A stretch of 64,000 bases of DNA from positions 8,058,515-8,122,514 of the forward strand of contig CAJINV010000005.1 in NCBI GenBank assembly GCA_905178155.1, written 5' to 3'. Numbering within the stretch: position 1 is the first letter of the stretch; each line of letters opens with the position of its first letter. The position numbers were made by a program, and so were the translations under genes. The stretch is from Amoebophrya sp. A120 (taxonomy: Eukaryota > Protista > Dinoflagellata). This document shows, piece after piece, positions 7,001-53,800 of this stretch. The notes beneath the pieces are model-generated. The model was not told the origin of the DNA. It searched no databases and saw only the letters and a list, made by a program, of their open reading frames with translations.

Positions 7001-8665
7001 GTCGTGGTTGTAGTGGTCTACCTCGTCGAATGAACTGCACGACATCAGGCTGTCCTTGCCGCTGAAAATATCCTCGTCGTGGTCCCGACACACCTTATCG
7101 TCATCTTCCTCTTCGTCCACTACAGTTGTAGTACTATCATCGGCTCCTCCTGGTCGACGTGTGGCTCGTGCTCTTTCTCCGTCGCTGCGGTTGAGCCGCC
7201 ACAGATTGCTGACGAACCGAGCGATTGAATCCTCTTCCAGGTAGAAGTAGTTCTGGACGCGGCCACCAGTATTAAGAATACTACTTCCCGCCGCGGTCGT
7301 AGCAAAGCTACTGCTGCTCGGTATATGAAAAGAACTGCAGACTTCATCATCATCGCCATCTCGATGTTTGTTTTTCTTCTTTCCGAATAAAGTACTGTAG
7401 AAGTCCTGCGCGGAGGTAGTTTCTGTTGTTTCCCCCTCCGCCTGATACTTCCTCGGGGCCTCGTTCTTCGAACAATTCGGGAAGCACTGCGACGCCGTCG
7501 ACGAGAGGTCTGAATTCGCATTCAGATCGTCGAGGAGAGATGCGCGGGTACTGGGGTAAATCTTTTCGTGAGTAAAACGTGCTGGATGTTCATCCAGTGG
7601 TGGCGCTCCAGAACCGGCTTTCTTCTCCTGCGGTCGTGACCACGCCGGCGAATGGATATTAGTACCACTCCTACCCGGCGGCGCATCATCAGAACCAGCA
7701 GCAGAGGAAGATGGAGAGGTACTACTTCTAGATGTCGCCGCGTCTAAAAAGGCGGAAAAATTGACGTTCCGCCAATGGCGGAAAAGAGCGCCACGACGCT
7801 CCCGCGGTCCCGCCGGTTTCAACATCATCCGCGTCGAGTTTATTTCGTCTCGCGGTTGCTGACCACGCGGCTGCTCTTCCTCTGCCCGCTCTTGAACAAG
7901 GGCAGCGGTAGCTTTACTTCCGTGAGAAGTCATTTGTCCTTCGCCGTCCGCGACAATTATGTTGGGTAACAGCCACAGTCTATGCATTGCAAAAGCATCG
8001 TACTAGTATGAATTGCATTACAAATACAAATTATTTGCTCAGCATGATAAATTACATTTGTCATGCAGTTTTACCTTAGAAAGCAGATTTTGTCATGCAT
8101 ACACTGCAATTACTACGAGTGCGATACTTTTGCAATGCATACAACCTCAAAAACTGCACATCCGCCGCAACTTCGTCGATGGAGATCATCGCAAGCGAGA
8201 GCCGGGATTGCAACACTGATAGGGATAAAAAATCACGAGAAGCTGTGTGTGCGCCGTCAACAAGATCTTCATGATGTTCGTCATAATTCAACATCTTCAA
8301 CTGGTCTTCAAAGTCCGCCAAAACCTGCTGCAGCTTGGAAAAGAGAAAATCTTCATCTTCGTGGTACAACCGTAAAACAAAAAGCTGCGTCCGAGCGGCG
8401 TTGACCAACCGCTTTAACTGCTGCAAACCGGGGTCCGCTTGGAAGGCGAGGATATTCCTCACGCGGGTTTGTCGCTGCAGTTCATGCGGAGTAGTTGTAG
8501 TACCGACGCGGCTGCTGCTGGCAGAGGATTTCCATTTCGCTGTGGAAGATGTTCTTGAAATGCTCGGAAGCAAACGGCTTTCCCACCTGTTATATGTGAT
8601 GTTTCATTTTCAAATGGAATGATCCACTCTTCATAGATAGAAGTCCTCGATGCAAAGAAAGCCAT
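4092..8665 (-). CDS. Hypothetical protein with 5 introners and a hydrophobic C-terminal tail; start uncertain (8573-8665)
   Basis: ORFs 8076, 6737, 5274, 4774, 4500 and 4092 join in frame after excision; ends GGLSVLIFYHAGLI*. Confidence 0.65.
4293..4545. mobile_element. Introner family A
   Basis: TSD TTCTC; left terminus CAT. Confidence 0.9.
4803..5065. mobile_element. Introner family A
   Basis: TSD AGCGT. Confidence 0.9.
5163..5312. mobile_element. Introner family C (TIR TAT....TGCAAAAGTATCGTACT, ~150 bp)
   Basis: Degenerate TSD TGACT/AGACG; frame restored. Confidence 0.85.
6564..6845. mobile_element. Introner family D (TIR TATCCTGAGTAAAAACGTCCCCAC)
   Basis: TSD GCTCT. Confidence 0.9.
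7981..8141. mobile_element. Introner family C
   Basis: TSD CAGTC/CAACC. Confidence 0.85.
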
Positions 8666-8809
8666 AACTGGTACAACTAGTACACCATAAACAACTTCTA
8701 CATAGCTGCACTACTAGCGGAAACGGCATGGCACGGAAAAAAAAATTTGGCACCAAGAACGACGACCTATACACGTACGACTTCTTTTTATTGGAAGTTA
8801 TTATAAATT

Positions 8810-11800
8810 CTACCATTCCACGATTTTCCCAATCTCCCCGGTTGCCCACTGGTGCATCCGCAGGGCCAGACGAGGACCCAACTTCAACTTCGACCTCCGA
8901 GACTGGTCCATCTCGAGGTCCCCGTCCAGTGGAAATCCCGTGGAGGAACGAGGTGTTCCATCTGCTCGCGTACTCGTCTATGAAAGTGCACAACTCCCGC
9001 CCCTCCCCCTTATTTGTCATGCAAAACCCCAAATCCAGTCTGTTCCTCATGGCACTGTTTGCATGAAAAGTTCTGGTAGCCCAAATAGCACTACACTCCA
9101 GTATAAATCTGTCATGCAGAAACGGCGTTCTTGGGGATGCTTGTATTGCCGTTCATGCTATACAAATGGGGGGAAGGGGGAGTTGTGCACTGTCATACTG
9201 TCCCGCCAAGTTGCAGAAGCATGCCTTCGGAAGTAGACTCCTGCACCCGTTCTTTCCCCAACTTCCGGAACCAGTTATCAAATGCAAAAATGTCTGGGTC
9301 TGGAAGGATGCGCGATTTGTCATGCAGCTGTTCCATGACCCATGTGGTCTGGAATGCACGACCTAGCATGACAGATTCTGCGCGGTCTCTCTCATGCCTA
9401 TCCTGCATGAGAAACCCCCTCCCGACTTGGTCAAACCTGGACGACCACTTTTGGCAAGTATGCAACACAGATTGTTGCATGCTTCAGATTTAGCATGACA
9501 AGTTGCATTCTTCCAGATGGAGACATTTTTACATTTGATACCAGTGTACATCGGACCAAAAGAAATTTTCGTAGTCCTGCTCAGAATTCCTCGCCTGGTC
9601 GACGGCGAGATTTTGATCTGTTGTACTACGACGGCCGGTCTCCATCAAGAACGGGTTCTTTATCTTTGACACGGGCTTGGAAAAATTGACCGGCCGCAGT
9701 TGGATGGACTTGGTGTTAATACTCCAAACAGGCTGGTCAACTACATTGGAAACAACAACTTCCTGCTTCTTTCCTTCCGAAGCTGGGGCCGTAACCGGGG
9801 CTGCTGCTGGCAGTGGCAGTTGAACATCACTTTCCAAATATCAAAAGGAAAGATCCCCCCTCCCCATATCAAAACGAAGTCTCTGATGCTGGATTTGCGT
9901 ACACGAATCAGATTTGTCTTGCTGGCGAGGACTGCAGGCCCATACTCAGCCTGAGTGGACAGGTTTTGGCCTAGGCGCTTAGCATGGCAGACGTCTACGC
10001 TGTAGCTAAAACAGCATGACAAACCGCCTGTAGAATGCGGCGGAGCTTGTGGAGTTGCCTTCATGCAACACAGAGACGATTTGTGACCTCAAATCAGCAA
10101 CACAAATTTTCGGCAACATACCTTTTCAATATGGGGAGGGGGGATTTTTCCTTACGATACCAAATCATCGAACAAAGTCTCGTAGTCAAACGGAATCTCG
10201 TGGGGAAAGGGGTCCCCGCAGCAGATCTCATTATCCCTTGCAAATATATCTGGGTCTGGAAAGTTGCAAACTTGTGATGCGGGTTCTGGAACAGGAAAAA
10301 ATCTGTATTGCGTAGGCAGCAAAAGGTAACCGATTTTTTCCTCCAGAAGAGAGCATCTCTAATGCGAAATAGGCATGTTGGAGAAGCTGCCACAGAGTTT
10401 GTCATGCTCTGTGTGCATTCCAGACCTTTTTGTAAAAGTTGAAGTAGATGTAAAAAATGCATGACAAATGTCTGATTTCTTCCAGCCCCAGACATATTTG
10501 CATTTGATACTCATACGGCTTGTACGGTGGTTCTTGCTCACGACGTTCTTCGGCCTCGTGGTGGTCTACAACTTCTCTACCTAGTCGGCCAGGTTCCACG
10601 ACTTCCGAAGCTGGGGCCGTAACCGGGGCTGCTGCTGGCAGTGGCAGATGAACATCATTTTCCGAATATCCTGTGTAAAAACGTCCCCACACCATAGTTG
10701 TCATGCAACTCTGCATGCTTAAAATGTTTCTCATGCGGAGCCCCATGAGAAGCATTTTCTAATGCGGTTTTGAAATTTGTCATGCTCCAATCAGCATGAG
10801 ATACTAGATCTGTAATGCTGCTAAACTAGCTCAAACAGCACTACACTACGCGTCGAAATTTGTCATGCCAAACAACCAAAGCTGTGTGATTTGTCTAGCA
10901 GATTTCCCATGTTGACTCTGGTGTGGGGACGTTTTTACACAGGATACCGAATCATCGAACAAAGTCTCGTAGTCATACGGAATCTCGTGGGGAAAGGGGT
11001 CCCCGCAACAGATCTCATACGGCTTGTACGGTGGTTCTTGTTCAGGACCTTCTTCGCCATCGGCCTCGTGGTGGTCTACAACTTCTCCACCTAGTCGGCC
11101 AGGCTCCACGACGCCGTCCATCTATCCTGAGTAAAAACGTCCCCACCCCAGAGCTGTCATGCAGTTGTGCAATGACAAGAACGTTTGTGATGCGCAGCTC
11201 CATAAGAGGCATTTGCATTTCCAAACATGTTTTCCCATTTGTAATGCTGTAAACAGGATGAGAAAATGGCTTTCTCATGCGGCTTCCCTTGCCAACTAGC
11301 ACTACACTGCAGAGGGAAACTTGTCATGCACTGCTCCCAATAAAACTTGGAGGTTTGTGTTGCTAGATTCCCAACTTGACTATGGGGTCGTGGAGACGTT
11401 TTACAAAGGATACCATCCGTCGGAAATTCAGCGGCTGCAGTTTCACGTTGGAAAGATCTACCTGATGTATCGCAAGAGCAAACTGTTTCACTGTGAACTT
11501 GTGATGCAGAGAACGAAGCACCAAAGTGTTTGTCTTGCTACACCTGCAAGACATCGGAGTTTCAAGCGTGTTTTCCCTTGGAAAGCGCGCATGGCAAATT
11601 CTCCGTGTCATGTGTAACAAACTTGTGATGCAGATCTCCCAAAATCACCACAGTGAAACTGTTCTTTCGTGGGATATGATGCGGCGCAGGACCAACAGCC
11701 GGGCGCAGCAGCTCGGGAGTAGTAGTTCTTTGTGATGCGGAGGTCGTCGAGGAAGCAGCTGCTGGTGATCCTGCTGTAGTTGTTCCATGCTCCTTTTCTT

Positions 11801-14800
11801 CACCTCGTAACGCTCCTGTCAGCGGGAACAGCAAGTTCCGGCCCTGCATCCTTGCGAGGATGCGCTGGAGGTGAGGGTTTGCCAGCATGTCCTCCAACGG
11901 GAGTGGCAGGTACGTTTGTTCTTCATACCGCCCAAGAGTAGCCGACGGCGCTGGTGGATCTTTGAAAACATTTTTAAACCGGGTGCTGGTGCTGGTGGAT
12001 AATAAATCACTATCCTGCTCTAGTTGTACCCTTGCATCTTCATCAAAACTGCTCCCCCAAGAACCCCCGGGCAAGAAGCTGAAGGAAGACAAAGCGGGCT
12101 CTTCCTCTCGCTCGGACATCACCCACGGGGTGCCGGTCCAATGAATGGAGGGATCTTCACGACGGTAAAAATCTTCGTGCGCGGAGGTACGATCATGATC
12201 ATGCGTGGATGTTGATGCTCCATATGTCGATGTTCCATGATGACGATGAACTTCCCCAAAGTCGTACTCGCGGAACAGCGGTAAGTGATCCTGGTTTCCC
12301 TTTCCTCCCTCTCCCAACTCGTTCGGCATGTTGACAAACGCGGTGTGCAAGACCGCCACGTAGGCGAGCGAGAGGTACCAGCCGTAGTTGTGAAGCCCGG
12401 TTCATTGTGAGGAAAAATTCCCCCTCCCCATATCGACAAGGAAATTTGTGACGCTGATTTGTGACCGCAAATCCGCTCTGTCTATGCATATGAGGCAATT
12501 GGGAACCGTTTGGCGCATTCCACAGCCAATCTGTGATGCGCGTTTGCATACTGCAAAGGTGTCTGCCATGCCTAACCGCTAGCCTTTTGCATACCCAATC
12601 AACCTTAGGAAGTGCCTCCAAGCGCCTTCTGCAATACAGCGGTGATTTGTGTACAGAAATCCAGCAACAGAAATTCCCTTTCTTCTATGGGGTGGGGGCT
12701 TTTTTCACTTTGATACGGTTTTGATTCTTCTCGCGCACTTCCGCCCCACCTTTCCCAACACGCGGGACGCCACGTTGTCGGATGCTAAAGACTATCCTGT
12801 GCAAAAGTATCGCATTCGTATAAATGCATTACAAATTTCCTCAGCATGACAAATAAAATTTGTAATGCAGATTTGCTTCAAGAAAAAATTTGTAATGCAT
12901 GATTGCAATACGAATACGATACTTTTGCATAGGATAAAGACCCGAGCCGTTGGTTGAAGGGCTGCTTTTCCCGCAGGATTTTCTCGATGAACGCTTGTTT
13001 TTTCGCACGAAGTTCCTCGTCTATCGTGAGTAAAAACGTGCCCACCCCATAGTCAAGATGGGGACTCGGCTAGACAAATCAAACACCTTTGGTTGCTTGG
13101 CATGACAAGGTTGTCCTCGTAGCGTGATCCTGTTTAGCTAGTTCAGAAGCATCACAGATCTAGCATAGCATGCTGATTCTAGCATCTCAAATGCCAAAAC
13201 ACGAACAGAAAATGCTTCTCATAGGGCTCCGCATGAGAAACCTTTTTGGCATGCAGAATTGCATGACAACTATGGGGTGAGGACGTTTTTGCAAATGATA
13301 TCGTCCTCGTCGTCCTCAACTTCCTCGACGCTGCTGTCGGAAGAGGTATCCTGTGCAAAAGTATCGTACTCCTAGTAATTGCAGTCATGCATTGCAAGTT
13401 TTTTTCTTAAGGTAAATCCGCATGACAAATTTTATTTCTCATGCTGAGGAAATTTGTCATGCAGTTATACGAGTGCGATGCTTTTGCATTGCATAAGAGG
13501 GGGATGATGTTGAAAATGCGGAGGATTTATTTCCTTTGGACACCTTCGAACGGGTGCTGTCTTTGTCATTGTCATCATCTTTATCGTCGTCGCTTCCCGC
13601 CTTTGTAGTAACCACGCGGCCCACCGGTGGTTCGTCCTCCGCATCAGAATCACTTCCGCCGATGTTCCTCTCGTCGTCATGCGCCGCCGGCGTTTTGTCA
13701 TGCTCGAGTGCCATGGTAGAAGTTGCCGCTGCTTTGTCATGCTGCGTTTTTGCAATCGACGCTGCAGAAGTAATTGCTGCGTAATTCCTCTTGTTCCTAG
13801 CGCCGTCGGGTGGAGGAAAAACCTCCTCCTCATCCCTCCCCTCGTAGGCAGCAATCATCTTTCTGCTTTGTTTATCAAATGTAAAAATGTCTGGGTCTGG
13901 AATGTTGCCGGGTTTGTCATGCATACTTTACATGACCCAAGATGTCTGTAATGCATGACCTAGCATCACAGATTTTTAGAGGGCTTCCTGATGCCTATTC
14001 CGCATGACAAGTGCCCTCTGCGCGTAGCAAAAACTAGACTCCTCTTGCTGGTCATGCAATACAGATTTTTTTAGAGTCCAAAGCTAGCATCACAAGTTCC
14101 AACCTTCCAGACCCAGACACTTTTGCAATTGATATTGCTCCGTCTCACTATCGGAGATTGTGTCCTCCGACGATGACGATGTCCCGTCCGAGGAGTCCGT
14201 GACCCCCGGTATCCTGAGTAAAAACGTCCCCACCCTGGAGTTGTCATGCAAATGCGCAGTGACAGGAACATTTGTAATGCGCATCTCCATGGGAGGCGTT
14301 TTCCATCGTGTTTTGGAGTTTGTAATGCTGTAAACAGGATGAGAGGCGCGGTTTCTCATGCGGCTGCCCTTCCTAACCAGCACTACACTGCAGATGGAAA
14401 TTTGTAATGCACAACTCCCAAAACTTGGACATTTGTGTTGCAGAATTGCCAACTTGACTATGGGGTGGGAACGACGTTTTTACAAATGATAACCGGCCCC
14501 GTCCCCAGCTGCAGCCCCGTTCTCCGCGCTGCCCGATAGAACAGACTCGCGGGCCCGGCAGCTCGTTGCCGCTGACGATGTAATTTTCGAGCAGCTTTGT
14601 TGTCTTTTCCAATCCCTTCTACTTCGTCCCAGGGCGAGACGACTTCCAAATGTTCATGCCGGTCCTCGTCCTCATGACGTCTAGTAGAGCTACTTCCACT
14701 CCTCGCTGCTGCAGCGCTACTTTTTCCACCGACACCTCCACTACTTGTTCCAGTAGCACCTTCACCCCGAGAGGCGGGCTCCTCTCGCGTGCGACAAAAA

Positions 14801-17068
14801 GCCGCTAGCGCTTTCAGCCGATGCTCCTTGTTCATCTGCGCTTCTTCACCCACCAAGAACTTGTTCTCCGTTGTTGTAGTACCTAATGTTTCTTTGCCTA
14901 CCGGAGTGTTCTTACGCGTAGCTCCAAAAGGCGAGCCGACTTGCGACAGAGGCGAGTTGTTCCACATATCCATGAAAAAACCCATGGGCGTCGAGGGGAC
15001 CGCCGTGGTTGCGTTTGACATGGGAGATTTCAAAGGTTGTGCGAAGGTGGTCTTGTGGTCCGCATTTGAGGTCTTTTTGTTCGAGGAGGTCTTTTTCAAA
15101 TGATGCTTCCTGACCGATCGTTGCCCACCTACTCCTCCCGAGGTAGATGAATTAGAGACAGCGCTGACAACATCTTCTACTTCCCCCGAGTGATGATCTT
15201 GAGGCGCTCGTCCTCCTGTGGTTTGGTTCATCCCACTAGCCGCTTGATGTTCTTCCCCAACGTCCTCTCCCTCCGATCTATCAAATGCAAATATCCCTGG
15301 ACGTCTGGAAACTTGTAATGCGGGTTGGACAATCTTGAGAACGTCTCAATTGGTGGCCACGCATGAAGACAAGTTTTTCAGCTGCCGGATGTTGCCTGTT
15401 CTGCATGGCAAACTGCCTTTCCGCATGACAAAAAACTGCGATGTTAATGTTTGGCTAAAGCGCATGACAAACTCGAGAGTCATGCTGGCCGAGCATGACA
15501 AACTCCGCATTCTTCCAGACATCCAAGGATATTTGCAATACATACGAACCCCCGGAAGATGCCAGCGAGGACCTGGACGCGTTCGAAGGCAGTTGCAGTG
15601 ATTGCACTTCCGAACCGGAAGAGCCGGAGCCAGCGGAAAGGGATTCACTACTCGTCGTGTCTACCTGCATTCCGCCGAACACGTCGTGTTGTTGAGCGAT
15701 TGCAGTTCCATCGTCCCCGTGTTGCTCAGCTACTAGAGCACCATAATTACCTGGAGCTCCTGCAGGATTACTTCCATCCCCACCCCCACGAGCTGCAGAT
15801 GATCCGAACGCGGACAGAACCGCACTGCACAGCTGCTCAGCGTCTTCGTTGGAAAGCCGGAGGAGGTCGGATTCTTCAAGGACCTCCGGAAGATGCACGG
15901 TTCCTTGTTGATCTTGCCCAAACGTCGCTTGCTCCCCGTCGTTTTCCTCGGAAGACGAAGAGGAGTCATGTTGAGAGGAAGAGGCATGAACTACATCTTC
16001 AAGTTGTACTGCGGTACTACGATCGCCAGCAAGAACACCTCCAACTTCTTGCTGCTGTTCCTCTCCCCCTGCTCCGCCGCGACTTCTGGCCCCAGCGGAC
16101 GACGCCCGAGACGAAGCCTATGGATGTGTCAGGATCGAAATCGACAAAGTTGTAATGATTTGTGATGCATAAAACGGATACCAGTTGGCGCCTAGTTTTC
16201 AAGTGGCGCATGACAAATTTGGGTAGGGGCGAAATCCAATTTGTAATGCTGTTTGGGTAAGGAAGACGCCATTTGTCATGCTACTTTAGGAGCTCTATTT
16301 CTACCCCTCGACAGGGTTACAATCTGCCTCGGGCCTACTCTGCAAGACAGGCACTTTGGTTTGTGGGTTACATTTTATACGTCACAAACTATTTCAACTT
16401 TGACGATTTCAATCCTGACGCTTCCATAAAGCCGCGTTGGAGGTTGTAAAAACAGCGCTGGAGGATCGAGAAGCCGGATGCGAGGCGATGTTGAAAATTT
16501 CTGGACCGCCTCCCTGCTGGTCAGCCGAATCTCCGTCTCCCAGCAAGACCCAGTCGTCCGAAATTAACCGGCCGAAATCTTCCTCGTCGTGGTAGTTCTT
16601 GCGGCGAACAATTTCCGCCCCGTCAGCAGTGGCACCAGCGGCAGACGAGCTTCCGGCTCTAGGCCCGACGGAGCCCCCAGCTGCGGAGGGGGAGGAGGTT
16701 CCAGCTGCACCTCCGCTAGAACTACTATTACCTCGGGCGATCGCAGTTCTTTGTGTAGTTGCAGAAGCCCCTCCTCCTCCTGCGCCGGTATTGTAGAACG
16801 CCGGAGCGAAGAAACTGGTGAGGTTGCGACCGAAAAAGCTGCTACTGCCCGCAGTCTGTGAAGCGGAAAGTGGTGGATTCTGTGTCGTAGACATCGAAGC
16901 TTGTTCCCTACTTCCACCTTCCATACCACTGTCCGGCCCTGCTCGCGGCCTGCCTCTTTTGGTCCTTACCCCCAGACCCGCGACTCCTCCTGCGCTTGCG
17001 CAGAGAAGCGAACAGAAAACTTGTAGCTTGCGCCTCATCTTGTAGCACGACCAGGGGGGTCGTGGCAT
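8810..17068 (-). CDS. Hypothetical protein ~1438 aa with a possible N-terminal signal sequence and an internal repeat; 15 introners
   Basis: Span minus 15 elements and 15x5 bp = 4317 nt, divisible by 3; most junctions traced in frame. Confidence 0.7.
8979..9197. mobile_element. Introner family E (TIR TATGA.AGTGCACAACTCCC)
   Basis: TSD TCGTC/CTGTC. Confidence 0.85.
9276..9540. mobile_element. Introner family A
   Basis: TSD CCAGT. Confidence 0.9.
9839..10159. mobile_element. Introner family B
   Basis: TSD CCAAA. Confidence 0.9.
10232..10509. mobile_element. Introner family A
   Basis: TSD CTCAT; empty paralogous site at 11014-11018. Confidence 0.95.
10667..10946. mobile_element. Introner family D
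   Basis: TSD CCGAA. Confidence 0.9.
11123..11412. mobile_element. Introner family D
   Basis: TSD CCATC. Confidence 0.9.
11468..11676. mobile_element. Introner family F (TIR TATCGCAAGAAAAAACTGTTTCACTGT, ~210 bp)
   Basis: TSD TGATG. Confidence 0.9.
12403..12715. mobile_element. Introner family B variant
   Basis: TSD CGGTT; left terminus CAT. Confidence 0.85.
12793..12936. mobile_element. Introner family C
   Basis: TSD AAGAC. Confidence 0.9.
13022..13300. mobile_element. Introner family D
   Basis: TSD TCGTC. Confidence 0.9.
13347..13495. mobile_element. Introner family C
   Basis: TSD AGAGG. Confidence 0.9.
13873..14134. mobile_element. Introner family A
   Basis: TSD TTGTT/TTGCT. Confidence 0.9.
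14210..14491. mobile_element. Introner family D
   Basis: TSD CCCGG/ACCGG. Confidence 0.9.
15279..15544. mobile_element. Introner family A variant
   Basis: TSD CGATC/CGAAC. Confidence 0.85.
16119..16428. mobile_element. Introner, singleton TIR (TATGGA.G.GTCAGGAT.GAAATCG.CAAAGTTG)
   Basis: TSD AAGCC; frame restored. Confidence 0.85.
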
Positions 17069-18299
17069 ACTCCTATATTTTTCTTCCCTAAGCAGAACAG
17101 TGCAAGCACTTAAAACTACGTCGCACTTGCAGAAGATTTCTTACTTTATCGGCAGGAGCACAGGAAGCGAATACAAAAAAGTTCCAACTACTTATCCAAT
17201 CGTGCGAATCGCGATAGAGGTCCTTGACAAAAATCAAACTTCACACGAACGGTAGTAGAGACGAAAAAAAATTAAAACAGTAAGTTTTGAACCAGTCCGA
17301 GCGATGAATGACCACGACGTTTCTAAAAACAATACGGTATGATGTCTTGTGCGGAACATGAAAAAAATCTGCGCTGCAAATGATGGATCGCAATGAGTAG
17401 GGGGTCAGATCATGAAATCTTTTGCTGCTCCTCAGAAAACAAGTCCAGCAACAGAAAGATCTTCTACAGACGCTCCTTTTTCAGGTATAATTGCAGAGAA
17501 ACAGTTGCAGAAAAGACAGGGCGCTGGTGGCAAAAGAGTAAACGGGTGGCACTTCTTCTTAGAGCTACTTGCCGGCTGCACCTGTTGCCGCCACTGTCGT
17601 CCGACGAGGGTTAAAGAGATCTCTTCGAAACACGTACTACTTTTCTATCACAATAACAGTACTCGCACAGTCGTCTTCCCAAGAAGTACTTTACCCGTTT
17701 TGGTTTTGTTATTGTTTGCGTCCTCGGGTACATTTATTCGGCACTCTGGTGTTTTACCTCTGATTGCAATCATTTTGATGGTTTCCTCGTATTAAAGCCT
17801 TGTCTGTAGTTCTGGATTCAAAAGAAGTTCTCGATAGTAGTACCCATTCCAATAAATGCAAGCTCACGGAAATAACGGAGGATCGTATTCCAAAATCGTA
17901 GAAATAAATCGAAGTTCTCGGATGGGTTCAGTCCAAATCCCGAATTAATAAAAGGAAGCTCTTTGTTAAAATTGCAAGTTCAAAGAAGTTTCAGTAGTTG
18001 CAAAAGTCTTCTCTATATCGTACAGTTCATCTTCATTGCAATAGCAGCGATCATTTTTTTCAGCAGGTTGTAGTCACTGCAATCTTCTTGCTGCTACTCC
18101 TGCGGCGCGCATACAACTCGTAGAATTGAGTTCCAAAATTCAACTTTTCTGATTCAGTTTTCAGTTTTCATTTGGTATTTTCTCGCGAACAAGACTGGGC
18201 TCCTCAAAAAGACATACTTACAACGGCGCCGAAGAAAGTTCTTCGCACCAAAATAAACCGTAAAATAACGCTAAAGTTCTTCTTCATAGCAGTTCCCTC

Positions 18300-21200
18300 T
18301 TAAATCCACGCGTGACGATTGTTAATCTTCCACGGGACGTAGGTTTCCAAAAAGTAGTTTTTCTCATCCGAGTCCTCTACCGTGCCTGAAGACACTCCTC
18401 CTCCTGCTCCGCCCACATCATGATCACCCCCTCCTCCCCCATCTTCCGCGAGGACCAACATGGAGTCGTCGCCGTAGTTCTGATGATTTTGATTTTGCCC
18501 GCTACTGCTGCTGCTCCCAGAAATAGAAGAAGATCCGCCACTGTACGCCAACAGCGCCTCTACTTCGTATTTGTAGCCGCACTGCAGCATCTATCCAGTG
18601 CAAAAGTTGTATCGCACTCGTAGTAAAAATTGCAGTTATGCATTACATTTTCCTCAGGTCAATCAGCATTACCAATTCCATTTCTCACGCTGAGGAAATT
18701 TGTGATGCAATTCATACTAGTACGATGCTTTTGCAATTCATAGCATCCGCTCAATCTCCATCCGCAGTGCCGGATTGGACAAGACCAAGTAATTTTCTTC
18801 CTTTAAACTCAGTAACATCCGCTTCTCCTTCGCGGTAAAACTCCCGACCGAAGGGTACCTCCGACTAACGTCGGCGATAACGTCCGTCACATGCAAACCG
18901 ATGGACCTCAAATTCGGCAGGGTCTGCTTGTACTTGAGGAAAATGTGCACGCCGTGGGGGTCGCAGTCCCCGAGGTAGAGGAAGGGGGTCAGGGGGTAGA
19001 GTTTCGCGAGTTTAGTCAGTAACTTCCGCGTTAAAACGTCCGGAAACCCCTTCGCGGTTACCAGTACGATGTTCTCGACTTGCTTATAATTTGCAGTTTT
19101 ACTGTTCGACGGTTTACTTATTTTGCCGTGTTTCTCCTGGTTGTTTGCCTGGATCTGCTCCTGTGCTTTCTTGTTGAAGTGGTCCAGTAGGGAGAAAAAC
19201 ACAGTCTCTTTCTCCACGATCAGAATGCACTTCACATAGCTGGACGACGATAGCCCCGCATTGAGCAAAGCAGATTTTCCGTTTAAATCGATGTCCCGTG
19301 CGCACTTATCGACAATGTCCTCGCTAATCGGCACGCCCCGGGTCGTCGTGTCCGGTAACACCCGGTATCCTGAGTAAAGATATCCCCACCTGCCCTTAGT
19401 CCAGCTCGGAAATCTGCTAGACAAATCAATAAGCTTAGGTTGTTGCGCGTGACAAGTTTGGCCTCGTAGTATAATGCTGTTGCGGTCGTCCAGTAGCATC
19501 ACAGATATGGCCTCTTATGCAGCTGATTGGAGCATTACGAATCCCAAAACACGACTAAGCAATGCTTCTTATGGGTCTCCGCATGAGAAACATTTTGAGC
19601 ATGCAGATTTGCATGACAGCTATGGGGTGGGGACGTTTTTCCATAGGATACCCGGCCCCCAATCGTCAAAAAGGGCCCGGAAATTAACCCCTTGTTGACC
19701 GTCAAAACGCCGAAAAGTTTCCGCGGTGTCCGGAGTAGCAGTACAATCTCCTCCAAAGTTTTGTTTAGCTGCAACTGCTGGGTAAACAACCCCGTCTTCA
19801 AATCCTTGGACTTCAAGCGGTAAAACAGTTCCCTTTGCGTACAAACCCGGTTCTGCACCAGCATCTCGTGGATCAAATTCAACACGGCGAAAATCCGGGC
19901 CATGCGGAGGAGCGAGGGAGAGAGGTTGGACTGTTTGATTTGGATCACCGTCGGTTTGGGATTGCAGCTTTCCTTGCCTATGCCTTGCAGTTGCGACGAA
20001 GAGTAATGAGCCGCTGTCGGCGGGTCGAGGAGAAAGGTTTCTTGTTCGTCGACTTTTCTATCCTGTGCTGGGGCCCCGCCAGTTTTCTTGTCTTGTTCCT
20101 GGTCCTGGTTCAGTACTCCTTTCGCCTCGTCCGTGTTCCCCTCAAACAAAACCAGCATATTGTCTTCCTGCAACGAGGACTCTGCGTGATGTTCCGGCAC
20201 AGCAGCTCCTACTTTTTCGGAACTGGCAACGGTGGCGGGACTCGCCTTTTTACTACCACTCTCCTTATCTTTCGCCGTCGGACCCACGGCATGCGTCAAA
20301 TTTTCGTTTTCGTACACCGCGTGCTTCAGCCAGATCGGAACGTCATCGTTGTTGTCTTGTTTGTGTTTATTTTTCCGGCCCGCACCGCCTCCCTGTAGTT
20401 GCTCCTCCTGCTGTGCTATCAACTGCAAAAGTGTCTGGGTCTGGAAGAGCCGGGGCTTGTCGTGAGGTCTGCGATGCTGGTGCTAGCATCACAGATTTTT
20501 TGAGACGCTTCTTGATGATAATCACGCATGAGAAATGCCCTCTCTGCGTGCCAAGAGCTGACTCCTCTTGGATGCTCATGCAACACAAACATTTTTAGAA
20601 TCCGCAGACAGCATTACAAGTTCCACTCTTCCAGACCCAGACATATTTGCAATCCATATGTGCCGAATTGATACCATCCGAAGATTCCTGACTGTCCTGA
20701 GTTACGGGCGAAACCTTCGCACTCAAGTGCTCCAGCCACGATTCCACGATGATATCCGCGTGTTCTCCGCCTATCGTTCCCTTATCAACTGTAAAAGTGT
20801 CTGGGTCTGGAAGAATCCAGCTTGTCATGCTGATTTTGGATTCTAAAAAAATCTGTATAATCGCATGAGCAGCAAAGAGAGTCCAAGTTTTGCTACACGG
20901 AAAGAGTATTTGTCATGCGGTATAGGCATCAGAAAGCCCTCACAAGACCTGTGATGCTAGGGCATGCATCGCAGACATCAGGAGTCATGCAAAATGTGCA
21001 TGACAAACCTTGCATCCTTCCAGACCCAGACATTTTTGCATTTGATATCCCTGCTTGTTACCCGATTTGTTCTCTGCACCATTGGTAGCGTCGGATTGGA
21101 ATTTGTTTTGCGTCTGGGAATTGAAGGCGGAAGAAGAAGTGTGGGATGTAGCTGCAGATTGCTTTTGACTGTAGTTCTCACTGTGGTCGTTCGCGGCCAT

Positions 21201-24200
21201 AATTTGGGATGCGGCACCGTGATCAAAATTCGGGGCAAGTTCTTGCACCTCTCCAGCAGTTGTGCTTGACGTAGCAGGACAATTGGCGTTCAACAAACTC
21301 ACCCAAGGCAACACCCCCTCGTGCAGCCGCTTCAGGCTGGTCAGGACTAAATTCTCGATCATCTCCAGCAAAACCTCCCGCGAAACGCCGTAGAAACAGT
21401 CCCGGTCGAGATGTTCGTCGTCGTCGTCATCGTCGTGGTTATCCATGCTGTTGTTTTTGGAGGACGTGTCTCCACCTTCTTTCAAGACCAACGCGGTTTC
21501 GCCATTTCCCTCCGGAACCACCTCCGCAAGTGCAGGCTTAGAAGCGGCTTCACCTAGAACAACTTCCGGGTGCTGCACGGTAGAAGTGCAGTCGAAAACA
21601 GCTTTATTAGTGCCCTCTCGTCGCCCTCCGTCCAGCAGCGAAAGCGTGGTCTTCTTGTGGTCCTTCCGGGAAGAAAAGACCGGATTCTCGATCAATTCTT
21701 GCCCCGGGTGAAACTCAGGATTCACCTCGTCAAGATCGATCTTACAACTCTTACGAGATGAAACCGTCTTCCCAGCGGAAAAGTGCTTTTTTCCGTGATG
21801 TTTCGCACTGCTCTTCCTGACGGATGAATTGGGATGACCAACCGTAGAGGTGCAACCACGAGCAGGAACAACTGTTTCTCCGTGTTTCATCTCGCTGGTA
21901 GTTGTGTCGACGATCTTGAAGTAATCCTTGTCCGGCCTCGCATTCTCGAGCACAGGCCTCCGCTCCCCCGCAGCAGGCGCCGGCGGCGCTTCCGTCAAGT
22001 AGCGCAGTTTGTCGGTTGGGGACGAGTTATCATCATCTGCGCTGTAGTTTTTGAAAAATTTCAGAAACTTGTCGGAAGATGATTTGTTGCCTTTCTTCTT
22101 GCTTAGTATACTTTCTAGCTCATCTTCACCGCCTTCTGTTGTCTTGTTATCGCCCGCTAACAGTGGTTTCCTGCTGCTGTTTTGGTTCTCGTTAACAGCA
22201 AGAGTCCTACCCGGTCCTTCGCTAGAAGAAGTTTTGGTGTTCTTCATTCCCCCTGCCTTCAGCAACCGGTTGTTTTTAGCGAGAGCGGCTGCAGTTCCTG
22301 AATCCGTGGGGGCTTTCTCATTCTTTGCCCGTTCGGCATCTTCTGTTCCTGTACAACTACCAGAAGTATTCTTCACTAATCCTTCCCCGTTGAACTTCGC
22401 GCTGTACACTTCCACTGGACAGCTCTTCGAAAACCAGCACTTTTTCTTTGCTTTTTCGAACAAATACTCCGCGAACTTCATATCGCAAGAAAAAAGTGCT
22501 ACGGCTACACATTGTGTTGCAGGCCAAGCAAGACAGACAATCTCTGTAATGCCGGATATGCATAGTTGCCTCGTTTCATAGGTGTTTCCCGTAGGATTTC
22601 TGCATTACAAGTTTTCGCTCTCATGCAGAGAAATTTGTGTTGCTGAATTCACTACAAATGTGTAACTGTAACACTTTTTTCGTGGGATACTTCACTTTCT
22701 TCTTGTAGTACTCCTTCGGATTCGTCTGTTTCAGCTGCAGAATGGAAACGATCTTATTTTTTTGCTGGTTCTTGCTCCCTCTCGATTTGGAATTTTTGCC
22801 GTTCGAAGAGTTAGACGATTGCTGACCACCACCACTTTCTAGCTGCTCCATAGTTTCTTGTTCCTTACTCTTCACTTCCGTCCTCTTGATTTCCCTGGCC
22901 CATTCCTTGGCGCAAAAATTCTGGAACTCCTGCACCGAGTGGAACACCTGCGGCTTATTCTGTTCCTGTTTCTGCGCGATCTTTTCCTGCAGAATGATCT
23001 TCGTCGCTTCCTTTCGCAAGTACTGCTGCTGCTCCGGATTTGACAGAGCGAACACCTGCTCCGCTTGCACCAGTGGGGGTCGAGACGTACTTGCCCCGCT
23101 AGGTGCTGGCGGAAACAGTAGGTTCTGGAGGGGCAGCAACGGTGAACTTCCGTCGTTCTGGAGGGCAGAAAGACCACCGCCTTGTTGGTGCGTCTGTTGT
23201 ACTAGGTGGTTCACAGCATGGGGCGACGGGATTGGTGGTGGTGGATCAAGGTTGTTTGTCTGCACCATGCCCATTTGCACTTTAGCCACGTCGCGGAGAA
23301 ATTCGTCCTCGATCAGACGCTGCTCTTTGGTCGTTGTAGTTCCTGCAAGATGAACTATAGCATTCTCTTCTTTGCCCCCGGGTGGATCTACTTTGCTTCC
23401 AGGAATAACTCCAGCTGGGGGTGGTGCTACACCTCTCGACGCGGACAGCACCAGCTGCCCGGTAGAAGAAGTTCTAGTAGTACTCGCCGAAATAAATTCT
23501 CCTGCTTGGTGTGCTTCTACTTCTAAAGCCACTGGATCATCGGATATTCTTTCGGAAACGAGAAGACCTCGTTCCTCCCCTGATTGCAGCGCCGTCGTGG
23601 CGAAGACGTCCATGTTCAGGTGGTCCAGGGCCGCGGGGGCATTGGAGTCTGCTGGCTCGTCCAATAAGACATTGCTCATTTTCCGCGGTTCCTCCCAGAC
23701 CACCGCAGCCTTTCCTTTGAGCCCGGCGCCATCTTCACCTCGTTCTTGCGAGTTCTTTTTCATCTTCCCTGTAGTTTTCGTCTTCGCTGCTACTTTGGTG
23801 GTGGTGCCGGTCGTTTTATTGTTTTTGATGTTCTTTCCCGCCTTTCTCCCGGACTGATTCGAGCCGGCAATGGAAGATGACGAACTACTACTACTGCTCC
23901 CCCCTCCATTATGCATTGCAAAAGTTAAAGTATCGTACTCGTGTAGATGCATTACAAATTTCCTCAGCATGAGGGATAAAATTTGTAATGCTGATTTACA
24001 TTCGAGAGAAAGATTTGTGATGCATGATTGCAATACGAGTACGATACTTTTGCACAGGATAGCCATTCAAAGACTGCAACTCCGCGCTCAACGCGGCAAA
24101 CTCGGCCTCCAACTTGTTCGCTTGCTCCTCTGCGTCGTCCTCGTCGTCGGAGTTTGTTTTATTTGGCAGTTCTACTCCCGGCGCCCCAAGAATCTTCTGA

Positions 24201-36800: not shown

Positions 36801-39800
36801 TTTATCCACTTATGAATCCATCGTGTCTGCTGGCCCCCGGACTGACTGCAACAGAGTGAATCAATCCGCAATGCATAAAAGCTGCTTTTTATCTGACACA
36901 AGCTGTTCTACTTTGTCATGCAATAGTCGCTGTTTGCTTGAGTTTGCGTGAAATATATCAGCATCACAAATTTTATCTTTTTCCCGACCGCCAGACCGAA
37001 TGATCCAAACTTTTCGTACTGAAGCCCCAGACGTCCGCCGGATATCCTTCATAACCTTGCCGCCCTGGAATTTTATTTTGTTTTCAATATGCCATCCTCG
37101 CATGACAAAACTTTTCATTTTTCGAGAGAAAATCGAAGTCCGCACTTCTTCTCGGGCTCGGGCAAATTGAACTTCTTCTCGGGATCGGAATACTTGTTCC
37201 GTAAAACAAAATGAAAATCAGACCATCGGGAACAAGCAATAAAATTTCACTTTCACTTTTTTTAATACAGCGGCGGGGAATTAATATTATACCTTCCCAA
37301 TAATCCACCCGACCTCTTCCCGGCTCAAAAAGAGCCGGACCCTGCTGAGACTTTCGGGCTCCAGCATCGTGCCGATGTGCAGGTCCTTGTGCGTAATCGC
37401 TTCCTCCAATTTCTGGGTCAGCATTTGCGTGGCGATCCGAAGTTGTTCGTAGGAGCTTCCCTGAATCACAATTTTGCGCCACTGCTCGTGCTTGTGCAGC
37501 TTCTCGTCGAATTGTCGGGAACGCACCGCTATGAACTGCGAAAGCATCGTACTAGTAGTATGAATTGCAATACAAATTAGCCCAGCATTACAAAGTAAAT
37601 TTGTAATGCGGATTTGCCTTCAAAAAAAAGATTTGTAATGCATAAAAGCAATTAGTACGAGTACTCGATACTTTTGCACAGGATAACCGAACTAGCGAAT
37701 TCCAACTTCAGCGGGGGGGTGGTCGGTCCGGGTTCCTCTATCGCAAGAAAAAACAGCTTCACTGTGATAATTTTATTGCAAGAACCGCATCACAAGTTCT
37801 TTCCGTCACATGACACAGAAAATTTGCCACGCACGCGTTTCCCATAGGGGAAAACACAGTTGAAACTCCAATGCCCTATGCAGGTGTAAAGAGACAAATA
37901 GTTCTGTGCTCCATTTTCTGCATCACAAGTTCACAGTGAAACAGTTTTTTCTTGCCATATCCTCCATGTCGACTCTGATGCAGTTTGAAGCCTTCCGGAC
38001 CTCCGTCAGCATCGACTTCGCGGACATGCGCTCGATGCCAATCGTGGGTACCTGGTGGAAATGGGAATTGTCGTGTGTGAGGTTCTTGTTCTTTTCGTGT
38101 ATTATAGTTTGCTGGCGGAGTTGAAATTTTTCTGGCTCCGTGGACTCACGATTGTCGTGCTGCACAAATGATGCTTATTTCTTCTGAGTGCTCAAATCAC
38201 TGTCTATATCTTCTGAGTGGTCAGATATCGATAGAAGATCTGAGTGCTCAGATATTATGACTAGATAGACTTGTCTTGATTTCCTCTGAGTGCTTATTTC
38301 TTCTGAATCATACGAAATAAAGAGAGAGAGAAACTAGGGTGCGAACAGTTGTTCAAATTGGATTCATTCTAGAGTGGTGCGATTCGACTTTTTCATTTTC
38401 CGCGGAATGAATTCTGGTAGCACTAGCATACTTCTTCCGCGCTAGCGCAAAAGAACCTTGCTTATACTTCACAACGATGAACTGTGACTAGAGATGGTAG
38501 GCGTGAAAATCCTATGGGTACAAAAAGCCAAAAGAGTGTATAAGGTGTTTATCAATAAAAGCAATTTATCGAAATCGACCAAATACTGCGTTTTAGTGAA
38601 AAAATTTTGAGCAAGATTCAAAGTAGCACTAAACTCGTCCTCCTCGCCAGATATGACAAGTCAAGTCTACTTCAGTGCCGTGATTGCGATCCAATTGGGC
38701 AAATAAGTCCCCCGGGCGGGGCTCTGGGGTCCGACCTCCAAGCGTGGGCGCTTGTTCTTTGGGCCCCACCATCCTCCCCCGGCGCCCTCCCGTGGCTTCC
38801 GTGCACTGCTAAACAGAATGGGAAGGCCAGGAGTTTGACCATTCACCGCGCAAACAGAATGGAACGAAAGGGCGGGGGTTGGCCATTCGCCAGAAGGGAA
38901 AGGTCGGGAGTTTGACCATTCACCAGGGGGGGAAGGCGGTCGGGAGTTTGGCCATTCACCGTTGAAATTTTTCTGGCTCCGTGGACTCACGATTGTCGTG
39001 CTGCTCGTGGTGCACGTGCAATGACATAAATGCGTAGTGGTCCTCTATCTAAATGTTAAAGAGCAACGACAGTAGCAATCATGTACTTTTACAGTAGAGA
39101 ACTTCTTCTACAGCAACAAGTTTTTATGGGTGCGATTTATACCAGCAGGTTCACCAAAAACGTCCTTTGCGCACAGGTTTCTAAGCACTTGACAAACAAC
39201 TCCACGCCCGCGAGCTTGAATTGGTACACCCCGCCGGTCTCTCGACTGCAAAGATGCTTGGGTCTGGAAGAGTGGAACTTGTGATGCTGTCTGCGGATTC
39301 TAAAAATGTCTGTGTTGCATGAGCAGCAAGAGGAGTCAGCTCTTGGCACGCGGAGAGGGCATTTCTCATGCGTAATCAGCATCAAGAAGCTCTCAAAAAA
39401 TCTGTGATGCTAGCACCAGCATCACAGACTTGATGGGTCATGCAAAATGTGCATAACAAGCCCCGACTCTTCCAGACCCAGACATTTTTGCAATGCATAC
39501 GGTCTATAGACTGCAAAGATGCTTGGGTCTGGAAAAGTGAAACTACCCCGCTAGGCATCGTGTCTAACATTGCTGCAAAAGGGGAAGCTGTATTTATTTT
39601 ATTGCAGCATGGACGATAAATAAAGCTGATCCTTCTTCTCAGTTATGCACCAACGCGCACTGCGCACGACGAAAAGCGCTTTCAAAAGTTGTCATGCTAA
39701 GCGATCTTTGTGAAGCGTTTTCGAAAGTTGTCATGCTTTGTTCCGCTTGCAAGTGCCGTCATGCCGGTTACTATCCATAATTCTGCTCCATCAAAAGTTT

Positions 39801-50800: not shown

Positions 50801-53800
50801 ACGCTCTGCGTGTCTGTCATGCTCATCATGCAAGACAAATCCCAGATTCTATTGTAACGTTTGAGATTGTAACGTTTGAACAGGTCATAGCAGTTGTAGT
50901 TGTTTTTGAACTGCTGGTCGTGTTCGATGCGGTCTATGGATTGCAAAAATGTCAGGGTCTGCAAGATTGCAACTTGTCATGCTAAATCCGAATCATGCAG
51001 AAATCTGTGTTGCATGAGTGCCAAAAGCTGTCCATTTTCGACCAAGTTTGGAGGGAGTTTCTCATGCAGGATAGGCATGGCAGAGACCTCACAGACACTG
51101 TCATGCTAGGTCCCGCATTCCAGACCTGATGGGTCATGGAAAACCTGCATGACAAGCTTACACTCTTCCAGACCCAGACATTTTTGCATTTGATACGGTC
51201 GTTTTGGACACGACCTTCCTCGGACCACTAATATCCGAATTATCCGCGTTATTTTCTGTCGAGTACGCACTTGTGTTGCTGCTCGCCCTTACCCTTTTCC
51301 TCCGATTAGCCGCCGCACCAAAGGTGGACGAAGTAGGACCACTGCTGTTCATCCCCGGTCGCTCTATCGGGCCGAGTTTGAAAACATCTCCCTTCTTCAA
51401 CGTGCCCACCGTGTTGCCGCCAACGACTAAATACCCCGAATGCTCATCCGTGGTCTTGCAAACAAAGTCGATTACCAGCTTCACGTATCAACTGCAAAAA
51501 TGTCTGGGTCTGGAAACTTCTAATGCTGCATTGGGAATAGTGAATGCTCTGTAATGCACAGGCAAGCATGAGAAATATCTGCGCTTCTTTGTGTTGCGTT
51601 TCTCGCATGACAAACTGCGTTTTTGCATGACAGGCAAAAGGGTCTCTTCTTGGACACGCATCACAGACTTTTTGGTCACGCCAGACAAGCATGACAAATC
51701 TCAAAATCTTCCAGACCCAGACATTTTTGCATTTGATATCACGCCGTAGAAACCGAGAAACGACGGCTGGATGGAGAAAAAGTTCGGGTGGGTTAATAAG
51801 AACTCGAGTAGCCCGAAGTTGTACCGGGTCACGCAATATGCATTGCAAAAGTATCGTATTCGTATAAATGCAAGTCTTGCATTACAAGTCTTTATCCTAA
51901 CTGAAATCCGCATTACAAATTTTCTGTCTCATGCTGAGAAAATTATTTGTAATGTATTTATACGAGTACGATACTTTTGCAGTTCATACGCAGCTGACGG
52001 CGAGAACAGGGATTTTCCGGTTGCTGTGGTACTTCGTTTGCGGGTTCTGATATCAACCGCAAAAGTGTCTGGGTCTGGAAGAGTTCCAAATGTGTCATGC
52101 AGGTCTTCCATGACCCATGAGGTCTGGTATGCATGACCTAGCATCACAGACTCTTAGAGGGCTTCCTCATGCACCTTCCGAATGAGAAATGCCCTGTCCG
52201 TGTAGCAAAAAGCTGGACCCCTCGTCTTGCTGGTCATGCAATACAAACTTTTTTAGAGTTGTCCCTAAACAGCATGACAAGTTGCAACCTTCCAGACCCA
52301 GACATTTTTGCATTTGATATCTGAAACTCGTCGTTGTAGGTTATATATGAACTGCAAAAGTATCGTAGTAGTACAAATTGCATTACAAATTTCCCCAGCA
52401 TGAGAAATAAAATCTGTAATGCTGATTTACCTTAAGAAAAAAATTTGTAATGCAGGACTTGCATTTATACGAATACGATACTTTTGCACAGGATATTATA
52501 CCCGGTTTGTTGATCGTTTTCATTTATGCCCGGCAAATATGTCTGGGTCTGGAAGTAGCTTGTGATGCTAGTTTGTGCATGGTGGGCGCACTTCGTTACG
52601 CAGCCACGCATGACAAGTTTCCGAGCTCCTATGTGTTTCGCTTCCCGCATGACAAACTGCGTTTTGCGTGACAGGTAAGAGGCTGCTTTCCTGCTCATGC
52701 ATTACAGATTCAAGAGTCATGTGAGTAGACAAGCATGACAAACTTGCATTCTTCCCGACCCAGACATAGTTGCAGTTGATATCATTTTTCTCAGGAACAG
52801 ATTGATGTCCTTCTCCTTCTGCACGAGGGTGAAATTCTGCTGGAAATACTCCGTTTTCGTGAAATTTTCCTGGAACGAGTGGGAGGACTCGATCGCCTTC
52901 AGGGACTTGATGGAGTTGTGGTAGATGATCTTACTGTTTGCGGAGATAATTATGTTGCTAGAGCCGGTACTACAACTAGTGGGAACTGCGCCGGTGCCAC
53001 CTGCTGTCGTGTTTCCCTGCGCAGCAGACTCGGTGGAGATCGTTTTCTCGATTTGGCTGGTAGTATTACCCGCCTGCTGATCATCTTCTTCCGCAGTAGT
53101 CATTATGTCGCTCCTGTGCAACATCTTCAATCCGGATGTGCTCTTGTTACAACCCTCGTCTGTTTTTATCCTCTCCGCAATTTTCGCATGGTCCTGTAGT
53201 AAGATTTCGATCTGTTTCGACGTTTTTGAAGTTTCCTCTTCCACCTCGATCTTCATCTTCTTCGTCCACTCCTCCTTTCGCTGCCGCTTCTGCTCCAGCC
53301 AACTATACCTTTCCGCCAGCACCTCCGATGCTATCCAAGAAGAAAACATTGTAGGTGTAACTTTTTTGGAGGAACAGCATTACAAATTTGTCTGGCATGA
53401 CAGCAAAAATCTGTCATGCGCAGATAGTACGCGAAACGCCCTTGAATGGACCCCACGATGCAGGCTCAGCATGACAGGCGCAATCAATTTGCATGCTGCG
53501 CATCACAAATTTACACTAACAACGTTTTTTTCTTGGATAGACGCCTGGCTGCTGATACTATCTTCGGACCAACGACGGTTGTTGTATCAAAAGAAAAAAG
53601 TTCGTCACGATCACTCATGGGCATTTTTGCAATACAAAAAACGCCTGTCATGCGTGAACATGCATCACAGCCAAAATGCATGCGGGATTTCCCTTAGTGG
53701 TTCTGCAATACAAGGAAAAGCTGTGATGCTAAAAAAATTTGTAATGCAAAGCCTCCAAGTTAGTGACTGTGACCACGAACTTTTTTCTCTCCATATGTTG

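Follow-up and report, generated by a model that had tools for sequence, protein, structure and literature searches.

Two introners of different families, here called B and D, interrupt the same homologous base in the two copies of a tandemly repeated exon of Amoebophrya sp. A120. We consider it likely, with a probability of roughly 0.7, that they landed there by two independent insertions after the exon had been duplicated, through a machinery that favors a word at a fixed offset from the insertion point. The broader reading is that the introners are inserted by a eukaryotic integration machinery yet to be described, which would recognize a short word to one side of the target, differing between families, and cut a set distance away as if by a ruler, that at least two specificities coexist (AATNGT for families A and C; GNTGAA for family D and partly for B), and that parallel intron gain at the same base by different families can be predicted from the exon sequence and is common between strains; the odds for and against this generalization seem to us about even. 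All positions given below refer to the window, a stretch of 64,000 nt of contig CAJINV010000005.1.

Two introner families at one base of a tandem exon repeat

The gene and elements concerned are listed here, together with the evidence for each (TSD, target-site duplication; skips are those seen in RNA-like contigs).

8813..17140, minus strand: reading frame of the host gene, 1,462 codons, open once 15 elements and one 5-bp repeat each are deleted
9774..10601, minus strand: copy 1 of the exon repeat, lying downstream in gene orientation and carrying B and A (alignment of the copies)
9839..10159, no strand assigned: family B introner, 321 bp, ends TAT...ATA, TSD CCAAA at 9834-9838 and 10160-10164; skip of 326 (321 + 5) in X5, X6 and X8
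10232..10509, no strand assigned: family A introner, 278 bp, TSD CTCAT on both sides, missing from copy 2; skip of 283 (278 + 5) in X5, X6 and X8
10602..11112, minus strand: copy 2 of the exon repeat, lying upstream in gene orientation and carrying D, with a single CTCAT at 11014-11018 (alignment of the copies)
10667..10946, no strand assigned: family D introner, 280 bp, TSD CCGAA at 10662-10666 and 10947-10951; skip of 285 (280 + 5) in X3 and X6
11123..11412, no strand assigned: second family D introner, just outside the exon repeat, TSD CCATC, with T-G-A at the same offset (element list, RNA-like contigs and word counts)

On the minus strand, a 225-nt exon unit (about 75 codons) occurs twice in tandem. 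The alignment of its two copies spans 219 nt and contains 12 mismatches and a single 6-nt gap (5.5% different). An earlier reading made from the letters alone (the sequence-only reading) had given the same coordinates for A, B and D, the duplicated CTCAT of A, CC(A/G)AA as the position of B and D, and the single CTCAT at 11014-11018, and had also held that different families sit at one homologous base. The alignment of the two copies places both B and D there, and the difference between CCAAA and CCGAA is that between a Leu and a Ser codon on the coding strand. No mutual blastn match was obtained between B and D, whose nearest relatives are elements at 59968 (80% identity to B) and at 42908 (91% to D). 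Their global alignment score (94, against 21 +/- 10 for shuffled sequences) owes its excess to shared ends and internal repeats. Judged by these comparisons, B and D are different families and not one diverged insertion. Closer relatives of A, B and D exist in the genome, because DNA contigs at >=90% identity cover all three interiors many times. The proposal that the 5-bp repeat is a TSD was borne out as well: copy 2 retains the empty site of A, and 5 bp is the sole length that fits.

Searches of Pfam with three long exons of the host gene gave no match. Elsewhere in the window, at 18741-24066 (minus strand), Spo11/topoisomerase VI A domains (PF21180 and PF04406) end a spliced frame of 1,435 codons. 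The frame is longer than is usual for Spo11, and it represents a meiotic gene of the organism that hosts the elements.

Inverted-repeat elements spliced out as introns

The window contains 91 elements with paired ends, 144 to 323 bp long, which make up five main families (38, 13, 12, 10 and 8 members) and eight small groups; some ten further ends without a partner, along with two to three elements with poor repeats, were kept out of the site sets used below. A perfect 5-bp direct repeat flanks 59 of the 91 paired elements, and the per-site identity of the flanks is 91% at this length versus 21 to 31% at lengths of 2 to 4 and 6 to 9 bp. As for the ends themselves, 174 of 182 begin with TAT, and 150 read TAT-N7-AAA. 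Like MITEs, the elements are short, have terminal inverted repeats (TIRs) and a TSD, and leave no room for a transposase; B and D are nonautonomous TIR transposons that are spliced out as introns. No transposase was found among 18 long exons scanned in the window. Transib and Ginger elements have TSDs in the 5-bp range, with termini of CAC and TGT, respectively; the ends found here are TAT and match neither. An A120 element without Ginger termini has been noted before (PMC12130899). A search of viral and prokaryote contigs with the pattern of the B end gave no match.

All seven elements between 8800 and 12390 are skipped by exactly their length plus 5 in RNA-like contigs from four runs of one sample, which also contain the host-gene junctions from 8974 to 11677. 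That these runs are RNA is a guess; their contigs skip a GT-AG intron at about 8587-8813 too, which fits an RNA origin. Two raw RNA runs, X9 and X10, had no coverage of the locus. For A, B and D, no GT..AG pair can be formed by sliding within the 5-bp repeat. The element at 8979 (window 8974-9202) provides the sole junction with unequal repeats, and there, on the coding strand, four repeat bases lie upstream of the cut; in this one case, the intron would start at the fifth and last of them, followed by TAT. Applied to all 91 elements, the same register gives AT (34), GT (26), CT (16) and TT (15) as donors, and AG in only 4 acceptors.

In base composition, the elements are poor in CG (observed/expected ratio, 0.59) and rich in TG/CA, while the exons are not (1.05), and each element has two to four copies of an internal word, TGTVATGC. 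At 39240-39560, an element is followed by its repeat, CGGTC, and then by a similar second 5' end, in the order repeat, element, repeat, partial element, an arrangement that is either a local duplication or a second insertion at one site. The smallest gap between neighboring paired insertion sites in the window is 21 nt in spliced coordinates, hinting at a minimum exon length.

A one-sided target word at a fixed offset

Within the duplicated 5 bp there was no preference, and no column reached a P value of <0.001 in either the window or a second assembly. Outside the duplication, 78 of 89 sites in the window have a T 15 nt from the TSD center, on either side. When metagenome contigs were scanned with the family A end, at least 136 loci were obtained, and the 80 loci among the matches listed are all from assembly JACKZZ01. 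This assembly replicated the result, with a T at that offset in 126 of 143 paired elements among the matches listed (39% expected; P = 4e-34). When the window and JACKZZ01 were taken together, T-N-G was present at that offset at 150 of 233 sites, versus 12 to 46 at eight neighboring offsets, and on both sides at only 2 of the 233. The side on which it lies is independent of element orientation (30:28) and of transcription (25:24). Being one-sided, fixed in its offset and independent of both orientation and transcription, T-N-G is therefore a DNA-level word, standing 13 nt from the duplication. Three candidate descriptions were rejected: an exonic splicing signal, as the word occurs upstream or (reverse-complemented) downstream equally often in the 25:24 count; a word tied to the orientation of the element, by the 30:28 count; and a single pooled motif for all families, which masked the D-type word.

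The word depends on the family, and reads AATNGT for A and C (whose target models predict each other), GNTGAA for D, and AATGCA-like for a 210-bp family. Thus, T-N-G was found at 115 of 146 family A sites versus 2 of 18 family D sites, T-G-A was found at 6 of 18 family D sites (background, 2.9%), and the use of G or A at -13 differs between families A and D with a P value of 8e-6, bearing in mind that the D model rests on 18 sites and that the family split was noticed after looking. Cross-validated information amounted to 2.1, 1.0, 1.4 and 1.6 bits for the models of A, C, D and the 210-bp family, respectively, while the B model, made from the nine other paired B sites, gave -0.86 bit, that is, no signal. 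Wider matrices added no cross-validated information. Of the two alternatives offered by the sequence-only reading, strong target-site selection shared across families or replacement at an occupied site, the first is supported in kind, but the selection is not strong overall (1.0 to 2.1 bits by family); it lies outside the 5 bp, 10 to 16 nt to one side, and is common to subsets of families, not to all.

The A/C word half resembles an internal repeat of the elements, AAYYTGTVATGC (two to four per element), with one position in disagreement; one and the same domain may bind the element and recognize the target, which we offer as a lead only. Among the B sites (1362, 12403, 27977 and L076, with window 9819-9823), G-T-N-G was seen at the usual offset in three of the nine nonfocal B sites; in the focal one and in one more, it was displaced by one base. 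The spacing used by B may vary by one base, the sites being few and the pattern having been seen post hoc.

The B/D site under the target models

Both copies of the exon repeat carry a D-type word at the expected distance:

9819..9824, plus strand: D-type word G-N-T-G-A-A, 17 to 12 nt left of the center of the B TSD, 22.6 times background under the D model
10647..10652, plus strand: D-type word, 17 to 12 nt left of the center of the D TSD, 28 times background

A D matrix made from 18 other sites, and blind to the focal one, ranks the focal site first among 219 positions in both copies. Under the pooled matrix, which is dominated by A, the same site is ordinary (1.1 to 1.7 times background), and under the model of B itself it ranks 189th of 219. 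Held-out flanks lend the D matrix weak support, as 3 of 16 D sides scored within its top 5% (P = 0.04). Among B sides, 5 of 27 did so (P = 0.01); an A-type matrix fits B sides equally often (5 of 27). T-G-A was present in 3 of 27 B sides versus 1.4% (P = 0.006). These small samples suggest that the preference of B overlaps the D-type one only partly. Because copy 1 has its D-type score through homology, the same score would be seen if a D element had been there first. The chance of B meeting D within the exon repeat is 0.003, 0.015 or 0.032, depending on the model, and 0.005 under uniform insertion. No orthologue of the focal site (9776-11112) was found in metagenome contigs with an exact 26-nt exon pattern, and a longer homologue of the exon adjoining the site was not found either, which is weak evidence.

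A second same-site pair and the coincidence counts

The scan of metagenome contigs provided a second case, in locus L081:

52346..52495, no strand assigned: family C introner, 150 bp, TSD TATAA (minus strand); at the same base of the orthologue L081 lies a family A introner of 263 bp (TSD GATAA)

L081, one of the at least 136 scan loci, is homologous to window positions 52790-51805. The element at 52525 is common to both (252 of 256 bases identical), those at 52051 and 51837 are absent from L081, and one element is present in L081 only. At the shared site, GATAA stands twice in L081 and TATAA twice in the window (a T/G transversion), and both repeat pairs are perfect in L081. The exons compared (134 bases) have 18 differences, with 16 of 44 codons changed, all synonymously. 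The site scores 4 to 19 times background under the A and C matrices and lies in the top 1 to 5% for its families. Between L081:271-932 and window 51805-52524, a tract diverged at synonymous positions only adjoins the 98%-identical shared element, and all five unshared elements fall in the diverged tract. This mosaic of close and distant haplotypes points to a possible recombination between diverged lineages.

A third homologous tract consists of the repeats L004 and L006 on one contig, with one and three elements, respectively, none of them coincident. In these paralogous repeats (L004:18-291 and L006:220-553), elements of different families lie 2 nt apart, and the left and right repeats of the L006:220-553 element match at only two of five bases. 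Two further comparisons were left out of the counts, namely L096/L117, in which both elements are common and were duplicated after insertion, and a 406-nt repeat at 38272 and 46967 that has no elements.

Overall, two exact coincidences were found in three homologous tracts, where uniform insertion predicts 0.077 (P = 0.003) and the pooled motif predicts 0.51 (P = 0.09). Once the preselected case is set aside, the count is one, versus 0.068 (uniform; P = 0.07) or 0.46 (pooled motif), which is not significant. For the coincidence in the focal repeat, the expectation under uniform insertion is 0.009, which is more than chance would give, but the case was picked after the fact.

Independent insertion and its alternatives

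In both same-site pairs (B/D and A/C), both repeats carry the allele of their own copy. For the focal site, the chance that a retained repeat underwent the parallel change is about 0.02 to 0.07, the upper value allowing for CG mutability. Independent insertion explains the match of both repeats to the local allele, because each insertion would have copied the target as it stood, and the tracking of the copy-specific allele by both repeats favors independent insertion over replacement. The replacement half of the earlier alternative is therefore disfavored in both pairs, in which exonic and intronic repeats share the copy-specific base, leaving clean excision followed by reinsertion as the version to be weighed.

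We propose that a cut-and-paste transposase would grip the word with one arm and make a 5-nt staggered cut 10 to 13 nt from it, the element being inserted either way round. Family B would be mobilized with an overlapping preference, and duplication of the exon (or divergence of strains) would turn one favored site into two, each of them struck once.

The alternative that survives best, although we regard it as improbable, is turnover with site memory: a D-type element would predate the duplication, with clean excision from copy 1 and refilling of the freed site by B. It would explain why, in both copies, the site stands at the top under the D model and low under that of B; the third-tract elements only 2 nt apart (L004/L006) are in line with it, and a new repeat made at reinsertion would also track the allele. 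However, it requires an unseen loss and a retargeting step, T-G-A is enriched on B sides at the right offset (3 of 27), and the shared A/C word fully accounts for the second pair.

Pure coincidence seems to us slightly less probable still. With one element per 290 to 450 exonic bases, 5 to 12 pairs per Mb of duplicated exon are expected without any preference, of which the scan would have picked one, and the unselected count alone gives a P value of 0.07. Against this stand the first rank of the site among 219 under a model blind to it and the position of the second pair, also in the top 1 to 5% of sites for its families.

It is harder to credit that the inside of an ancestral element was replaced by that of another family through gene conversion or gap repair that preserved the original direct repeats, a process that can be likened to P-element replacement in Drosophila. 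The common TAT...AAA ends (150 of 182) could prime such repair, and the base that differs at the focal site has gone from C to T within a CG, repeat mismatches being found at 9 of 66 CG positions versus 27 of 384. Nevertheless, the same substitution would be needed in the exonic and the intronic repeat of both pairs (a chance of about 0.02 to 0.07 in the first; a T/G transversion in the second), repeats are not generally kept identical (32 of 91 imperfect), and the ends of B and D diverge from base 5. Finally, an assembly artifact joining two alleles or paralogues, a danger named in the sequence-only reading, has next to no chance of being the explanation: the DNA run may be the assembly's own source, and one RNA-like contig mixes alleles of both copies (11008), making chimeric contigs possible, but as far as the short-read contigs go, both copies are covered by DNA contigs without errors, whose depth (21.6 and 28.7, versus 24 to 29 elsewhere) is that of single-copy sequence, the RNA-like contigs have separate B and D junctions and include one from 10631 that crosses the copy boundary while skipping A and B (X5 record 8 and X8 record 23), a single frame is open through both copies, and even as alleles B and D would form a same-site pair.

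Relation to described introners and transposons

The elements are Amoebophrya A120-type TIR introners, a described class. The inverted repeats of A120 introners begin with TAT, followed by seven looser bases and AAA (Farhat et al. 2021, PMC7789003). According to that paper and Gozashti et al. 2025 (PMC12130899), they are like ours in the TAT-N7-AAA ends, direct repeats of 3 to 5 nt and length of about 240 to 250 nt, and also in having noncanonical splice ends, many families and genes on one strand. Among 21 of the 58 A120 rows of the supplementary table in PMC12130899, family lengths near 150, 210, 260, 280 and 320 occur too, classed as 'TIR DNA, Unknown'. In the passages and table rows considered, as distinct from the figure logos (Fig. 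3 and S19-S25), we found no off-repeat target motif or same-site pairs of different families. The MITE-derived introners of Micromonas and Aureococcus, as summarized in PMC9860276, are likewise short nonautonomous TIR elements with a TSD that become introns, but they have canonical splice ends and a nucleosome-linker bias, in contrast to the noncanonical ends and fixed-offset word found here.

Parallel intron gain is established for Daphnia pulex (PMC4202315), fungal introner-like elements (PMC4457414) and Micromonas introners (PMC4540971), in which, as here, unrelated introns occur at one homologous position, and hot spots were proposed. In those reports, the cause was not found (in Daphnia, there were no distinguishing exon features) or the cases were too few. 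The combination used in PMC4202315, the same site with nonhomologous inserts, also describes B and D, which have only their ends and short internal repeats in common. In contrast to those cases, the occupants here are recognizable transposon families with their own TSDs, one of the pairs is confined to a single gene, and the sites can be ranked by a sequence rule. Tn7 and CRISPR-associated transposons likewise duplicate 5 bp beside a sequence that they recognize, on one side of it and at a fixed spacing, but they are bacterial, use a long specific site or a guide RNA, and insert in a fixed orientation. The likeness is one of geometry only, since here the word has 1 to 2 bits and both orientations occur. 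Neither an offset target word for these introners nor a same-site pair of two introner families was found in the literature searched (including PMC7789003, PMC12130899, PMC9860276, PMC4457414, PMC4540971, PMC4202315, PMC11282704 and bioRxiv 2020.10.14.339549), although figures and subscription papers may hold it. The one-sided, family-specific word at a fixed offset is what is new here, and a more novel result than the same-site pair itself.

Implications for intron gain

The word also offers a signature by which the transposase of the elements, left unassigned in the literature searched, might be recognized, and the one junction that is informative hints at the way in which such introns are cut in the absence of GT-AG. 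The A120 genome has some 30,000 such introns (PMC7789003). Whether introns at the same position were inherited or gained twice is a long-standing question, and parallel gains have been reported without a placement rule. If our reading is true, a word at a fixed offset makes repeated intron gain at one spot partly predictable, and with datable transposon families and a word that ranks sites, the expected parallel gains would become computable and testable.
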